A DNA stretch of 28,522 nucleotides, from the IMG/VR virus record IMGVR_UViG_2529292923_000024. The stretch is one strand, 5' to 3'. Source of the stretch: a virus (Duplodnaviria > Heunggongvirae > Uroviricota > Caudoviricetes). A program made the position numbers and the translations under genes. Below are positions 17,800 through 22,833 of this stretch, in pieces (position 1 is the stretch's first letter; each line of letters opens with the position of its first letter). The notes under the pieces are model-generated. The model searched no databases. It was not told the DNA's origin and saw only the letters and a list, made by a program, of their open reading frames with translations.

Positions 17800-18552
17800 A
17801 TGAACCTTGAAGCCTTACCGAAATATTACTCCCCGAAATCTCCAAAACTGAGCGATGACGCACCGGCGACAGGCTCTGGTGGTTTAACAATTACGGATGT
17901 GATGGCTGCGCAGGGGATGGTGCAGTCAAAAGCACCGCTTGGGTTTGCTTTATTCCTGGCAAAAGTTGGTGTTCAGGATCCTCAGTTTGCGATTGAAGGT
18001 CTGCTCAATTACGCGATGGCACTGGATAACCCGACATTGAATAAATTGAGTGAAGAAACCCGGCTACAGATCATTCCTTACCTTGTGAATTTTGCCTTTG
18101 CTGATTATTCCAGGTCTGCGGCAAGTAAGGCTCGCTGTGAGCATTGTGCTGGTACTGGATTTCATAATGTATTGCGCGAGGTGGTGAAACACTCCAGAAG
18201 CGGGGAATCTGTTATTAAGGAAGAGTGGGTGAAGGAACTATGTCAGCATTGTCATGGTAAGGGAGAAGTCAGCACAGCATGCAGAGGGTGCAAGGGTAAA
18301 GGTATTGTCCTGGATGAAAAAAGAACCCGGCTTCATGGCACGCCTGTTTATAAGGTTTGTGGGCGTTGCAATGGAAACCGGTTTAGCCGTTTACCAACCA
18401 CACTGGCGCGGCTTCATGTCCAGAAGCTGGTACCAGACCTGACGGATTATCAGTGGTACAAAGGATATGCAGATGTCATTGATAAACTGGTTACAAAGTG
18501 CTGGCAGGAAGAAGCATATGCAGAGATACAATTGAGAAAGGTGACAAGATAA
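17800..18552 (+). CDS. Q: late-gene antiterminator Q (Qin quuQ / phage 82 type)
   Basis: 250 aa from MNLEALPKYYSPKS; Cys clusters (CEHCAGTG, CQHCHGKG, CRGCKGKG, CGRCNGN); followed by a pR'-like promoter and terminator. Confidence 0.8.
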   Translation: MNLEALPKYYSPKSPKLSDDAPATGSGGLTITDVMAAQGMVQSKAPLGFALFLAKVGVQDPQFAIEGLLNYAMALDNPTLNKLSEETRLQIIPYLVNFAFADYSRSAASKARCEHCAGTGFHNVLREVVKHSRSGESVIKEEWVKELCQHCHGKGEVSTACRGCKGKGIVLDEKRTRLHGTPVYKVCGRCNGNRFSRLPTTLARLHVQKLVPDLTDYQWYKGYADVIDKLVTKCWQEEAYAEIQLRKVTR

Positions 18553-18583
18553 ATGGTTTTCGCCGAAGATGACGACATGATGC

Positions 18584-18612
18584 TTGCATTTTTCAAAAAA
18601 TATGGATAAGAT
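18584..18612 (+). promoter_or_regulatory. pR'-like late promoter
   Basis: TTGCAT (18584-18589), 17 nt, TAAGAT (18607-18612), directly downstream of Q. Confidence 0.5.
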
Positions 18613-18657
18613 TTTCCCAACGATGGGCTTTGTATGTCTACCGTTGATAAGATTTAA

Positions 18658-18684
18658 GAACCCGCCGATGCGCGGGTTTTTTTG
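18658..18684 (+). terminator. tR'-like rho-independent terminator
   Basis: CCCGC-CGATGC-GCGGG hairpin followed by T7 (18677-18683), about 70 nt downstream of the putative pR' start. Confidence 0.7.
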
Positions 18685-18894
18685 TACCCAGAATCCTGTG
18701 AGCTATACGGAAAGTACACAGAAAGGAAGGTGCGACCACAATTAATAACAAAATCTTAAAAATTGCACATGGCACTATTAGTTTTCTAAATATTGTGTAT
18801 TTTTTGTATTGCAGGATGACCCTGTAACGAAGTTTGCGTAACAGCATTTTGCTCTACGAGTTTGCCAGCCTCCCCCAGTGGCTGGCTTTTTTAT

Positions 18895-19014
18895 GTCTGT
18901 AGCGTCAAAGCAGCAATGTCGCTGGGGCGTCGTGCAATTGGCGTTGAGCTGGAGACTGAACGTTTTGAGCAGACGGTCAGGGAAGTTCAGGATTTAGTCA
19001 GTCAGAACGGATGA
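18895..19014 (+). pseudogene. remnant of a DNA methyltransferase C-terminus
   Basis: In-frame translation ...KAAMSLGRRAIGVELETERFEQTVREVQDLVSQNG ends at TGA 19012-19014; there is no upstream catalytic region; this resembles the C-terminal tail of DNA methylases as recalled. Confidence 0.45.
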
Positions 19015-19054
19015 TATTGCAGAATTAGTTACGTACCGTTATTATCCTGCGCCC

Positions 19055-19130
19055 GGCCCTTTAGCTCAGTGGTGAGAGCGAGCGACTCATAATCGCCAGG
19101 TCGCTGGTTCAAATCCAGCAAGGGCCACCA
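19055..19130 (+). tRNA. ileZ: tRNA-Ile2 type (anticodon CAU, ileX/ileZ-like)
   Basis: Cloverleaf assembled by hand: acceptor GGCCCTT/AAGGGCC, anticodon loop CTCATAA, TPsiC GGTTCAAAT, 3' CCA; near-identical to E. coli ileX as recalled. Confidence 0.85.
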
Positions 19131-19137
19131 TCACATA

Positions 19138-19214
19138 CCGCCATTAGCTCATCGGGATAGAGCGTCAGCCTTCGAAGCTGGCTGTGCGGGGTTCAAGTCC
19201 CCGATGGCGGTCCA
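19138..19214 (+). tRNA. argN: tRNA-Arg (anticodon UCG)
   Basis: Acceptor CCGCCAT/ATGGCGG, anticodon loop CTTCGAA, TPsiC GGTTCAAGT, 3' CCA. Confidence 0.8.
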
Positions 19215-19227
19215 TTATCAGCATCAT

Positions 19228-19304
19228 GCGTTGTTAGCTCAGTCGGACAGAGCAATTGCCTTCTAAGCAATCGGTCACTGGTTCGAATCCAGTACAACGC
19301 GCCA
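19228..19304 (+). tRNA. argO: tRNA-Arg (anticodon UCU)
   Basis: Acceptor GCGTTGT/ACAACGC, anticodon stem ATTGC/GCAAT with loop CTTCTAA, TPsiC GGTTCGAAT, 3' CCA. Confidence 0.85.
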
Positions 19305-19394
19305 TATTTATTTACTTGGCTCGCTTTTGCGGGCCTTTTTTTGTATCTGCGTTACACCATTAACTAATAAATCGAGTGCTTATCAGGAGGCTAT

Positions 19395-19619
19395 GTGAAA
19401 AAACTGATGGTGACGATTGGTCCGTTCGAAACAGAAGTTAGTTTTCGTGTTGTTCAGGGGGAGAGTGTACTTGTTGAAGATGTATTTCATGGAAAATCAA
19501 CAGGTCCTTATGTAAAAGAATATCTTATCGACGCCACGGATGAAAATATTGAGGTGGTGTACGATTCCGTCAATCACCCTGATTTGATCATTAAGGCAAA
19601 ATTGAAGCCACTTTATTGA
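19395..19619 (+). CDS. hypothetical small protein (74 aa) in the late cargo slot
   Basis: GTG start 4 nt after AGGAGG; no recognisable family; a terminator-like motif lies upstream (19315-19350). Confidence 0.45.
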   Translation: MKKLMVTIGPFETEVSFRVVQGESVLVEDVFHGKSTGPYVKEYLIDATDENIEVVYDSVNHPDLIIKAKLKPLY

Positions 19620-19671
19620 TCTGACCGGGAGCAATCATAAAATATCTCTGGGTACCCACAAGGAGATAAAT

Positions 19672-19902
19672 ATGTTTGTTTCTGAAGTGTTAATGGAAGA
19701 TAAGGACAACAAAGGATGGGTTAAAGGTTGGGCTGTGGTAAGAAGCTCGCCCTGGCATCTTGTTGGGGTTTTTGCGACAGAGGAAGACGCAGAAACGGAA
19801 GCAAGAAAGATGGGAGATAAGTACGAGGTTCACTATGGCTCGCATCGAACAGGAAGTGATGATTTTGTCTGGGGGAGTAACAGTCGTTTAACCCCAGAAT
19901 AA
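19672..19902 (+). CDS. hypothetical small acidic protein (76 aa) in the late cargo slot
   Basis: ATG preceded by AAGGAGA; followed by a terminator-like motif (19915-19946); no recognisable family. Confidence 0.45.
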   Translation: MFVSEVLMEDKDNKGWVKGWAVVRSSPWHLVGVFATEEDAETEARKMGDKYEVHYGSHRTGSDDFVWGSNSRLTPE

Positions 19903-20069
19903 TCCCGTAACTGAGGTCGCTATTGGCGGCCTTTTTTGTATCCGCGCCACGCCCGGCGCATATCAACCACAGAGCCTTTCGGGGGTGAGCTTACGGAGTG
20001 GTCAGTGTGACTTTCTCTGTGGGCAGATCGCTCCCGGGCGTTGGCTCACCCACCCAAAGGAACGTCACG

Positions 20070-20501
20070 ATGTTTGGTATTTTTGGTAAAAAAGCCCGCC
20101 GAGCGGCAGTGGAAATTAAAAAGTTTGAGAAACGTGATCTGGCACAGGCGGTTATTAATGCTGCCTATCTGGTGGCCTATGCAGATGGTGAATGTGAGGC
20201 TTCAGAGAAAGCGAAGATCGAGCAGATCTTGCGTAACCAGCCTGCGTTGTCCGCGTTTACGTCAGAAATTAATGCGATTAGCGCAACCATTATCGGTCAG
20301 CTGGATACGAACTTTAAAATTGGTCGTCGAGCGGCATTGCGTGAAATTGAAGATGTGAAACACGATACGCGTGAAGCGGAAGATGTGCTGGATGTGGCGG
20401 TGGCCATTGCGGAGGCAGACGGCGAAATTGAGCCGGAAGAGCGCAAGGTGCTGGAAGAGATTGCCGGTGTTCTGGGTCTTCGTCTGGAGAATCACCAGTG
20501 A
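20070..20501 (+). CDS. TerB-like (tellurite-resistance TerB family) protein
   Basis: 143 aa from MFGIFGKK; paired acidic DGE motifs (AYADGECEASEKAKIE and AEADGEIEPEERKVLEEIAGVLGL) typical of the TerB fold. Confidence 0.55.
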   Translation: MFGIFGKKARRAAVEIKKFEKRDLAQAVINAAYLVAYADGECEASEKAKIEQILRNQPALSAFTSEINAISATIIGQLDTNFKIGRRAALREIEDVKHDTREAEDVLDVAVAIAEADGEIEPEERKVLEEIAGVLGLRLENHQ

Positions 20502-20665
20502 CGGTAAAACTGCGCCTGGCTGTGGCTGCACTCCTGCTGTTTCTGGTGGTGATGGTGGATTTCACCAGCAGAATCATGTCGGTGCTGGCGGATGGGGTGC
20601 TGGTCTGCGGCATTGTGGTATTGCTGTGGCCGGTGATAAAAAGAAACAGCCTGCATAATGCTTGA
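20498..20665 (+). CDS. small membrane protein (55 aa, two predicted TM segments), translationally coupled to the TerB-like gene
   Basis: GTG overlaps the TerB stop (GTGA); translation VTVKLRLAVAALLLFLVVMVDFTSRIMSVLADGVLVCGIVVLLWPVIKRNSLHNA; absent from the ORF track (under 60 aa). Confidence 0.4.
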   Translation: MTVKLRLAVAALLLFLVVMVDFTSRIMSVLADGVLVCGIVVLLWPVIKRNSLHNA

Positions 20666-20979
20666 TTTTTTTATTTGCTGTTTATTAAAAATACTACTGC
20701 ATGGTGAATCCCCCTGTGCGGAGGGGCGATCAGCAACCAGGTATATGGGATAATCGCGGATTCAGGTGCTGATACTGAATTCACCGGGAGGCACCCGGCA
20801 CCATGCTTTGCCGCAAAAGTGTTGTTTCTGTTTTTCTCAAACTATCATCGTTATCCCTTTATTTCCGGCTGCGCATGGCGTGGCCTTTTTTTTACGACCA
20901 GCCACTGGCAGATGGCCATCCTGTAATTTGATTCCGGTTCCGGCTTTTTAACTCTGTTCCTGTACACGGGAGAAATTCG

Positions 20980-22833
20980 ATGTCGATTAAACATTATGAT
21001 GTTGTCAGGGCGGCGTCGCCGTCAGACCTTGCGGAAAAGCTGACACACAAACTGAAAGAGGGCTGGCAGCCGTTTGGTAGTCCGGTGGCCATAACCCCTT
21101 ATACCCTGATGCAGGCGATTACAGCAGAAGGTGATGTGGTGGTCAGTGGTGCAACTGAGCCGGATTGGTACTACGTCATCGTACTGGCCGGGCAGTCCAA
21201 TGCCATGGCTTACGGTGAAGGGCTTCCGCTGCCGGATTCATACGATGCTCCGGATCCGCGCATTAAACAGCTGGCGCGCCGCAGTACAGTTACGCCGGGT
21301 GGGGCTGCATGCAGATATAACGATATTATTCCGGCCGACCACTGCCTGCATGATGTGCAGGATATGAGTACGCTGAATCATCCGAAGGCAGACCTGAGCA
21401 AAGGGCAGTACGGCTGTGTCGGCCAGGGCTTACATATTGCCAAAAAACTGCTCCCGTATATCCCGAATAACGCGGGGATCCTGCTGGTACCATGCTGTCG
21501 TGGTGGTTCGGCATTCACCCAGGGCGCGGAGGGGACATTCAGTGCGGACACGGGGGCCAGCCAGGATTCGGCACGCTGGGGTGTGGGTAAACCGTTATAT
21601 CAGGACCTGATTGCGCGCACTAAAGCTGCATTACAGAAGAACCCGAAAAATGTGTTGCTGGCGGTGTGCTGGATGCAGGGAGAGTTTGACATGAGCGCCG
21701 CCACCCACGCACAGCAACCTGCGCTGTTTACAGCCATGCTGACACAGTTTCGTGCTGACCTCTCCGTGTTTAACGCGCAGTGCCATGGTGGCAGTGCTGC
21801 AGATGTGCCGTGGATTTGTGGTGACACGACGTATTACTGGAAAAATACATACGCTACCCAGTACGACACCGTGTACGGCGGGTATAAAAACAGGGAGAGT
21901 GAGGGCGTTTATTTTGTGCCCTTCATGACAGACGGTAACGGCGTCAATACCGCCACTAACGCACCGGCAGAAGATCCGGATATTCCGGCATCAGGATATT
22001 ACGGTGCGGCATCGAGAACGAATGGAAACCAGGTATCATCAAACCGCCCGACACATTTCAGTTCATGGGCGCGCAGGAGCATTATTCCGGATCGTATGGC
22101 AACCGCTATTCTGAACGCAGCCGGGCGCACCTCAGCTTTCATCAGTGGTAAGGCACCGGAAATCAAACCCTCGCCCGGCGGCAACACGCCATCGGGGCCG
22201 TCTGAAGATGCATCCGTACGCACAATCTCCCTGTTGCCGACAGCCGGAGAGGCTGCTGCGCAGGGCTGGACCATTAAGGACGGCGGAATTCAGTTGTCGG
22301 GTGGTGTATTTAAGATCGCCAAGCAGAGCAATAAAACCTGGTCCCTGATGCATCCGGTGGATGACGCAGTCTCCCTGCTGACACGGGGTGGCAGACTGAG
22401 CTGTAAGTTTCGACTGTCAGGCGCACTGACCAACAACCAGTTCGGCCTGGGAATTTATCTGTATACCGATGTAGCGTTACCTGACGTCGTGGCGATGACC
22501 GGGACTGGTAACCCGTTCCTGATGTCGTTCTTCACCCAGACCACAGACGGCAAACTGAATCTGATGCATCACAAGAAAGCAGGAAACACAAAGTTGGGCG
22601 AGTTCGGGAATTACAGTAATGACTGGCAGACGCTGGAACTGGTGTTCACCGCCGGCAGTGCCACGGTTACTCCGAAACTGAATGGAGTGGCTGGCCCGGC
22701 ATTCCAGGTCATAAAAGACAGTCTGACACTGGGGCTGAATGCGCTGACGCTGACGGATATTACCAAAAATGCAGCGTATGGCGTTGAGATAGAAAGTCTG
22801 GTGCTGGAGATAAATGCACCGGCATCATCATAA
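20980..22833 (+). CDS. nanS: prophage sialate O-acetylesterase NanS-p (DUF1737 plus SASA/SGNH esterase domain plus C-terminal domain)
   Basis: 617 aa; N-terminal DUF1737-like MSIKHYDVVRAASPSDLAEKLTHKLKEGWQPFGSP; esterase GQSN motif (VIVLAGQSNAMAYGE). Confidence 0.75.
   Translation: MSIKHYDVVRAASPSDLAEKLTHKLKEGWQPFGSPVAITPYTLMQAITAEGDVVVSGATEPDWYYVIVLAGQSNAMAYGEGLPLPDSYDAPDPRIKQLARRSTVTPGGAACRYNDIIPADHCLHDVQDMSTLNHPKADLSKGQYGCVGQGLHIAKKLLPYIPNNAGILLVPCCRGGSAFTQGAEGTFSADTGASQDSARWGVGKPLYQDLIARTKAALQKNPKNVLLAVCWMQGEFDMSAATHAQQPALFTAMLTQFRADLSVFNAQCHGGSAADVPWICGDTTYYWKNTYATQYDTVYGGYKNRESEGVYFVPFMTDGNGVNTATNAPAEDPDIPASGYYGAASRTNGNQVSSNRPTHFSSWARRSIIPDRMATAILNAAGRTSAFISGKAPEIKPSPGGNTPSGPSEDASVRTISLLPTAGEAAAQGWTIKDGGIQLSGGVFKIAKQSNKTWSLMHPVDDAVSLLTRGGRLSCKFRLSGALTNNQFGLGIYLYTDVALPDVVAMTGTGNPFLMSFFTQTTDGKLNLMHHKKAGNTKLGEFGNYSNDWQTLELVFTAGSATVTPKLNGVAGPAFQVIKDSLTLGLNALTLTDITKNAAYGVEIESLVLEINAPASS

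Follow-up and report, generated by a model that had tools for sequence, protein, structure and literature searches.

An overlapping tciA-tciB gene pair and a conserved structured leader RNA in the late region of a lambdoid prophage

The DNA analysed here, 28,522 nucleotides (nt) of IMG/VR virus record IMGVR_UViG_2529292923_000024 (hereafter the window), is a lambdoid prophage. Its late region contains a tciA-like gene for a TerB-family protein, TciA, and overlapping its end a tciB-like gene for a very small hydrophobic protein, TciB, of the DUF3927 family; a conserved stretch that appears to act as a structured RNA leads into tciA. A sequence-only reading of the window had described a TerB-like open reading frame (ORF) ending in CAG TGA and an overlapping GTG (GTGA) that opens a 55-codon ORF, and both the sequence and the ORF list agree with this description. 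tciA starts with ATG at 20070, with AAGGA 8 nt upstream, and runs for 143 codons to CAC CAG TGA, its stop lying at 20499-20501. The GTG of tciB is at 20498-20500, preceded by GGAG at a distance of 8 nt, and its 55 codons end at 20665.

The overlap of the two genes is maintained in very different phages. We compared 21 intact pairs from lambdoid prophages, P1, the N4-like phage Pollock, the Erwinia jumbo phage ChrisDB, Salmonella phage Arash and Pantoea phage LIET2. In all 21 the tciB start lies between -11 and +3 nt from the tciA stop; the junctions are GTGA, ATGA, TAATG, TGATG or TTGA, and tciB starts at the same position with ATG, GTG or TTG. Because the tciB start overlaps the tciA stop in all intact homologues, both proteins are expected to be made together from one mRNA. 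The pairing itself was found in P1, Pollock, Erwinia jumbo phages, Arash, LIET2, Pseudomonas ZY21 and lambdoid prophages, which upholds the earlier idea that a soluble TerB-fold protein and a tiny partner with two transmembrane (TM) segments form a two-gene module.

The small ORF is in frame in its homologues, where the coupling holds in 21 of 21 paired loci and the median pairwise ratio of nonsynonymous to synonymous substitution rates (dN/dS) of tciB is 0.30. Its short length, GTG start and low-complexity hydrophobic composition could suggest that it is a chance open frame and that the TerB gene alone is real. This explanation is effectively refuted by a Pfam match of 62 bits, by starts at the same position in 21 loci of unrelated phages, by a dN/dS of about 0.3 and by the size of the DUF3927 family: a profile search across 1.84 billion representatives found 124 of its clusters (50% identity), and almost every one is 50-60 amino acids (aa) long. 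The ORF had also been said to be absent from the ORF track; it is missing from length-limited ORF lists only, and RefSeq holds it as WP_000216636.1, 'DUF3927 family protein'. Nor can the pair be presented as unannotated or new, since it corresponds to tciA-tciB of phage P1, is covered by Pfam DUF3927 and PHROG 1470, and has both genes in RefSeq, where one record carries the 19300-21000 stretch at 100% identity with both annotated. The gene pair is real but already catalogued by name (tciAB, DUF3927).

TciA matches the Pfam TerB family (PF05099) with 61 bits against a gathering cutoff of 24.4 over residues 26-138, so that the TerB-like assignment holds in a profile search. It also matches PHROG 632 ('tellurite resistance') with 231 bits and the solved Klebsiella TerB (PDB 2JXU) at E=4.1e-08, with query residues 15-137 aligned to 21-144 of the chain. 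The N-terminus is basic, with 8 K/R among the first 22 residues. Two ADG-x-x-x-x-E acidic motifs are a defining trait of the TerB family, and two acidic ADGE...E motifs, YADGECEASEKAKIE and EADGEIEPEERKVLEE, can be read off the translation of TciA; residues D39, E46, D117, E123 and E124 are invariant in a three-way alignment. Sub-threshold matches to NCBIfam DjlA (29.5 bits) and Pfam DUF533 (23 bits) were also seen, and membership of TciA in DjlA or YebE/DUF533 was rejected as neither score reaches the curated cutoff.

TciB has the sequence MTVKLRLAVAALLLFLVVMVDFTSRIMSVLADGVLVCGIVVLLWPVIKRNSLHNA (55 aa). Its grand average of hydropathy (GRAVY) of 1.43 is the highest in the window, the maximum among the other stop-free stretches of at least 50 aa (n=272) being 1.17. 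Hydropathy peaks at about residues 7-20 and 26-46, with DFTSR between them, agree with the two TM segments proposed earlier. Both termini are basic (K4/R6 and K48/R49), and by the positive-inside rule TciB is predicted to be a helical hairpin with both ends in the cytoplasm (N-in/C-in). The protein matches Pfam PF13064 (DUF3927) with 62.3 bits (cutoff 25, residues 3-51) and PHROG 1470, 'TciB-like inhibition of cell division or resistance to colicin', with 104 bits over positions 1-54 of 54. Residues D21, F22, D32, G33 and W44 are invariant, within a conserved core VDFTS..S.LADG.LV..WP. The tciB alleles (P0041, P0055, P0120 and others) are mosaic, two N-terminal halves being combined with at least three C-terminal tails. 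Some long DUF3927 matches (P0134, P0167, P0170) were considered as possible fusions and rejected as frameshifted or chimeric reads.

The conservation of the locus does not begin at tciA. Homology among all tciAB loci starts at about 19910-19944, some 150 nt 5' of the gene, at a terminator hairpin, and a T-run lies directly 5' of the leader in all lineages. The leader DNA is 76-94% identical between lineages, above tciA itself, even where TciA is only about 42% identical, and this conservation reaches the Erwinia jumbo phage. A pattern scan of IMG/VR gave at least 120 loci with the leader. Among the 106 listed loci with enough flank, it is followed by a tciA ORF of 140-143 aa in 88, by a gene for an NMT1_3-like periplasmic binding protein in 8 and by shorter ORFs in 10, several of which are visibly truncated or frameshifted tciA. 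A covariance model, R1, made from 20 sequences finds exactly one copy in the window (19932-20072, 154 bits) and none in P1, Pollock, Arash, LIET2 or the Pseudomonas, Vibrio and Rhizobium phages with TerB. The same prophages also contain diverged second copies (32-78 bits), each after a terminator T-run and 5' of other late-region cargo genes; these are genes for KilA-N or antirepressor-like proteins and unknown ORFs that run for 53-246 codons in the extracted flank. In a set of PPompW prophages (LC567818-LC567841; leader positions 1-54) ISEc20 of the IS110 family interrupts the leader beyond about position 54, which suggests site-specific insertion.

A known riboswitch or leader, such as the manganese riboswitch found with terC, was rejected as the identity of this element: Rfam 15 gave no match at 19900-20070 at E<=1 with permissive filters, while the same search of 18500-21100 returned tRNAs, the small RNA (sRNA) STnc100 and chance-level matches elsewhere. 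The region carries no annotation in 41 phage records, and in a partial search of the literature a 2026 preprint about Pas sRNAs of prophages names TerB only as a neighbour gene. The leader therefore appears to be a conserved structured RNA that is seemingly undescribed.

The predicted structure consists of the helices listed in Table 1, the longest of which would sequester the Shine-Dalgarno (SD) sequence of tciA. Complementarity is kept despite sequence change between lineages in four helices, namely the P1 hairpin, the pairing of its loop, helix a and the SD-sequestering helix. For the covariation test, 20 sequences less than 95% identical were aligned with MAFFT; in this alignment, whose sequences are related and come partly from a pattern with fixed TTTC, GGGTGAGC and GGCTCACC, 93.5% of cells are paired, compared with 38-50% for slid partners. 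Double changes are present at 10 pairs, where 4.7 are expected (1 of 500 shuffles was as high), and in 33 cells, where 8.7 are expected (0 of 500 shuffles); shuffle tests for single lineages are individually modest. Several pairs include G-U variants, a sign that the functional molecule is the RNA of the + strand. Both helix a and the loop helix are crossed by the SD-sequestering helix, which indicates either a compact pseudoknot or a two-state switch. Nested models give energies of -53 kcal/mol when the SD is paired and -47 when it is free, the minimum free energy being -57.

Leaders that hide an SD sequence are known from riboswitch platforms, RNA thermometers and the lambda N-leader with its RNase III site, and the tciA leader is likewise conserved and built of several helices, with the ribosome-binding site paired over a long range. 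It differs from these in having no Rfam match and no known ligand or trigger, and in that the same type of leader precedes unrelated cargo genes. We give even odds to the reading that it represents an undescribed family of pseudoknotted or switching RNAs that controls the translation of late cargo by SD sequestration, is triggered by a ligand, by RNase III or by a factor from phage or host, and has tciAB as its main client. Such a family would range over enterobacterial temperate phages and some jumbo phages, with clients that include tciAB, the secreted NMT1-like protein, KilA-N or antirepressor-like genes and others.

Table 1. Features in and around the tciAB locus. Window coordinates unless another locus is named; leader helices are numbered from position 19932 = 1.
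Feature	Position	Strand	Basis or remarks
tciA-like gene	20070..20501	+	143-aa cytoplasmic TerB-family protein; Pfam TerB, PHROG 632, PDB 2JXU, RefSeq WP_001299632.1
tciB-like gene	20498..20665	+	55-aa two-TM hairpin membrane protein (predicted), DUF3927; Pfam, PHROG 1470, RefSeq WP_000216636.1
Structured 5' leader RNA of tciA (~135 nt)	19932..20069	+	DNA conservation, covariation, covariance model
Leader, P1 hairpin	13-17::24-28		variants GCGCC/GGCGC, CACAUC/GAUGUG, UGCGCUU/AAGCGUA, others
Leader, P1 loop with downstream segment	18-25::103-110		CGCCCGG/CCGGGCG, CGCUCGG/CUGAGCG, CGCACA/UGUGCG, UCUCACG/UGUGAGA, UCGCACG/CGUGCGA
Leader, helix a	36-43::84-91		CCACAGAG, CCGCAGA, CCUGCAGAGC, CCGUAGAG, CCACAA, CCAAAGA, CGAGAG, GAAAGU, each with complement
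Leader, hairpin d	69-73::77-81		
Leader, SD-sequestering long helix	44-60::112-129		3' strand holds SD AAAGG at 125-129
Diverged leader copies	L029 3273-3417; L054 8845-8993; L056 14201-14346; L103 157-282; L058 3690-3815; L074 6952-7089; L009 6008-6129		
Q-type antiterminator	~17800-18552		
DNA methylase remnant	18862-19014		RefSeq; just 5' of the tRNAs
Three tRNAs	19055-19304		
74-aa ORF	19395-19619		matches PHROG 2571 positions 100-171 of 291 only
Terminator-like hairpin with T-run	19913..19933	+	9 pairs then TTTTGT; left edge of conserved cassette
STnc100-family sRNA gene	20673..20842	+	Rfam RF02076, 102 bits vs gathering 47, E=1.4e-22
Terminator-like hairpin	20867..20885	+	8 pairs (6 GC) then TTTTTTTT; 3' of STnc100, 5' of esterase gene
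DUF1737/SASA/DUF6645 esterase	20980-22833		
Single-TM ORF 3' of TerB, Pseudomonas phage AF	L027 1932-2153		
Single-TM ORF 3' of TerB, Pseudomonas phage Zuri	L032 1943-2146		
TerC-family gene and TerB homologue, Vibrio phage vB_VpaP-MS02	L028 378-1926		

The placement of the pair among late-region cargo, as first described, is correct: it lies between the Q gene and tRNAs on one side and the lysis genes on the other, with holin, YdfR-family and lysozyme genes found 3' of the esterase. No sigma-70-like promoter site was found in the 167 nt 5' of tciA (including 19934-20069). Given this and the late-region position, a Q-antiterminated late transcript is most likely the route by which tciAB is expressed. 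Two small ORFs lie between the tRNAs and the leader. The 74-aa ORF, judging from its partial match, looks like a gene fragment, and together with the methylase remnant it indicates that the cargo region holds decay products. STnc100, a flanking feature, starts 8 nt 3' of the tciB stop. The same sRNA is found in Stx2 phages 75 nt 3' of the stx2 operon (PMC12370729); since it follows stx2 there and tciAB here, tciAB fills the stxAB slot, and tciAB and stxAB replace each other as cargo at this place, which comes after Q and the tRNAs and before STnc100, the esterase and the lysis genes.

Genes for tRNAs are found near tciAB in many unrelated phages (the window prophage, JLK-2012, P1, ChrisDB, pSTEC711_1 and Pseudomonas ZY21). 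The tRNA species vary between them, and those of P1 and JLK-2012 are not close relatives. A common cassette of tRNA-Asn/tRNA-Thr and tciAB in P1 and lambdoid phages was rejected, as the tRNAs align at generic tRNA positions only. One idea is that the 5' hairpin of the leader protects the mRNA once processing has removed the tRNAs from the transcript.

The database name 'tellurite resistance protein' raises the question of whether the pair is a determinant of lysogenic conversion that provides the host with tellurite or metal resistance. TciA is clearly homologous to TerB, and a Vibrio phage does pair TerB with TerC. However, the window contains no terC, terD or terE, and published work cited in PMC12054061 points to TerC-TerD as the smallest functional unit. 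The lack of a promoter-like site 5' of the pair and its position in a late operon also argue against a resistance determinant, and according to the P1 annotation note the name was given by homology only. A role in tellurite resistance thus seems improbable.

The pair can be compared most directly with tciABC of phage P1, whose TciA and TciB share 41.5% and about 53% identity with those of the window. Both pairs have the same gene order and an overlap of stop and start, and both have tRNA genes nearby and are expressed in the lytic phase. P1 differs in that its pair belongs to the C1-controlled ban operon, with C1 operators, and is not preceded by the structured leader. The third P1 protein, TciC (MGFWDFADKHPIVLVV...), has no homologue in the window: the only ORF after tciB, of 31 aa at 20658..20753, was rejected as tciC because it is unrelated and the stretch is the STnc100 sRNA. 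The P1 tci gene names rest on homology only. In the lambdoid phage JLK-2012, deposited in 2012, the pair is 98% and 70% identical to that of the window and already named tciA/tciB, and the layout is the same (Q, tRNAs, tciA, tciB, yjhS, S, R, Rz).

The pair is common in Escherichia coli. Of 5426 complete genomes, 1640 have some match to the 596-bp query, and 803 (about 15%) hold 80% or more of it; where there is any match, the median is two matching places per genome. A species-level survey, using a pattern scan built on three sequences and one genome per GTDB species, gave 18 loci, 16 of them in Enterobacterales and two on short contigs of metagenome-assembled genomes labelled Bacillota and Proteobacteria. 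An intact tciA lies directly 5' of tciB in 13 of the 18. In four of the other five, tciB is truncated, start-less or degenerate; the fifth, L014, has an apparently intact tciB beside a truncated tciA.

The decay of tciB once tciA is lost might be expected if TciB were a toxic peptide, or a holin- or antiholin-like factor of lysis timing, with TciA as its regulator or antidote. A link to lysis timing had been suggested earlier, and it is true that in some prophages (pSTEC711_1, pPE4) the pair is directly 5' of holin genes and that the size and two-TM layout of TciB are those of class II holins. We nevertheless disfavour this explanation and regard it as improbable. Neither Pfam nor the PHROGs give a holin-family match for the pair, and the window has its own holin and lysozyme downstream. 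The pairs of P1, Pollock, Arash and the Erwinia jumbo phage ChrisDB lie among tRNA genes or genes of replication and nucleotide metabolism, far from the lysis cassette. P1 tciB is dispensable, and intact tciB genes exist beside a tciA pseudogene or without any tciA.

More can be learned from the neighbours of TerB in other phages. A tblastn search located TciA-like TerB genes in 131 phage records, whose hosts include Vibrio, Escherichia, Erwinia, Pseudomonas, Klebsiella and Salmonella, and we examined 14 contexts. A DUF3927-type ORF stands immediately 3' of the TerB gene in 8 of these (the Erwinia copy is weak, 14 bits). In the Pseudomonas phages AF and Zuri this place is taken by a different, single-TM ORF, and in the N4-like Vibrio phage vB_VpaP-MS02 a TerC-family gene (Pfam 141 bits) lies immediately 5' of the TerB homologue. 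The small AF and Zuri protein has a conserved motif, C.(W/I)YG(Y/W)QTERET(R/K)YA(A/T)FVGCMV; in AF its ORF is unannotated and overlaps the TerB stop by GTGA. No membrane neighbour was seen in 3 of the 14 contexts (PMBT3, K481 and RHph_TM16). A TerC-TerB complex has been reported (PMC11003894, PMC12054061), and TerB is described in the literature as membrane-associated or amphitropic. Taken together, the membrane neighbours of phage TerB, the TerC-TerB complex and the membrane association of TerB lead us to read TciB as the membrane partner of TciA.

There are precedents for such a partnership. In the ter cluster (terZABCDE) TerB, of which TciA is a full-length homologue, also has an integral membrane partner, but TerC is a polytopic protein of about 340 aa, whereas TciB is a hairpin of 55 aa. 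No terC, terD, terE, terZ or terA is present in the window, where the neighbours are two small hypothetical ORFs, tRNAs, DUF3927, STnc100 and the esterase. In the DjlA N-terminal domain and in YebE/DUF533 a TM segment is fused to the TerB-like domain, while here the TM part is a separate polypeptide.

A possible role for the pair follows from its setting. The genes are in the late operon here and in the C1-repressed ban operon in P1, and they are also carried by strictly lytic phages, which favours a role in the lytic cycle; in N4-like phages they lie among replication and nucleotide-metabolism genes. We propose that tciAB is a cargo cassette of the late operon in which TciB anchors or partners TciA at the inner membrane as a guard during the lytic phase, with the leader gating translation, and tentatively give this reading a probability of about 0.45, a little under even. 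TciB would insert into the inner membrane as an N-in/C-in hairpin and serve as membrane partner or anchor for the otherwise soluble TciA, much as TerC may do for TerB or the fused TM segment for DjlA and YebE. During lytic growth the complex would preserve the integrity of the inner membrane, or seal it against insults such as pore-forming colicins, superinfecting phage DNA and envelope stress, up to the time of lysis, and the amount of TciA and TciB translated would be set by the leader. That the pair has a stress or exclusion role, as the sequence-only reading also proposed, is plausible.

Several points weigh against this proposal. The literature holds no experimental assignment of function for tciA or tciB, and in P1 tciA, tciB and tciC are non-essential by CRISPR interference (CRISPRi; PMC10695390). 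The protective role is drawn by analogy with the phage-inhibition and colicin-resistance phenotypes of ter, which need terC and terD, both absent here. No natural TerB-DUF3927 fusion occurs among the 124 family clusters, so contact between the two proteins gains no Rosetta-stone support. The identities of TciA and TciB are uncoupled, being 44% and 84% between L008 and L009 and 98% and 70% between the window and JLK-2012; together with the mosaic tciB alleles, this indicates that recombination shuffles the two genes and is frequent within the cassette. A specific TciA-TciB interface would then need to depend on the invariant residues alone. In phage 434 and some prophages tciB is retained where there is no TerB gene, and in 434 it sits behind a 247-aa polytopic membrane protein in the place of TerB. 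Finally, the leader may be a switch, a static pseudoknot or a processing site.

The main rival of this proposal is that the pair forms a minimal defence or exclusion system, in which TciA would be a sensor at the membrane and TciB an effector that forms a pore or leak upon superinfection. TerB domains are found in validated defence systems, where 'membrane surveillance' has been proposed for them, and cargo of this kind is common in prophages. TciB is a very hydrophobic hairpin whose conserved acidic residues, D21 and D32, would lie within the membrane or next to it, and strict co-translation would fit a sensor and an effector made at a fixed ratio. The Bunzi, Shango and Dionysus systems likewise combine a TerB-like protein with membrane or pore-forming partners (in Dionysus, TerB-like DinB and pore-forming DinC), but they are host-encoded and constitutive and have other partners. 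For tciAB, PADLOC-DB 2.0.0 (2023 release) gave no significant match; the best for TciA was PDC-S48, an unrelated candidate, at E=0.0056 (13.8 bits), and TciB had none. The pair is also present in strictly lytic N4-like and jumbo phages. In the window and in P1 it belongs to operons that are not expressed in the lysogen, the state in which a defence system ought to be active, and in phage 434 tciB persists without tciA. We therefore consider a defence system of this kind unlikely.

In the proposal that we prefer, tciAB serves the phage during its own lytic growth, and the cassette is of interest in several ways. It is common, often with several prophages per genome, it spans unrelated phage types and it occupies the stx slot, making it a cheap and well-defined target for functional work. 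The association of phage TerB with a membrane partner, whether DUF3927, another single-TM peptide or TerC, offers a concrete hypothesis for the role of TerB domains that is relevant to the defence systems containing them. The leader is the item most worth following up. If the reading of it as an SD-sequestering RNA family is true, tciAB would be a membrane module made only when the leader opens, and if confirmed, the leader would be a new cis-regulatory element for the expression of prophage cargo in pathogenic E. coli.

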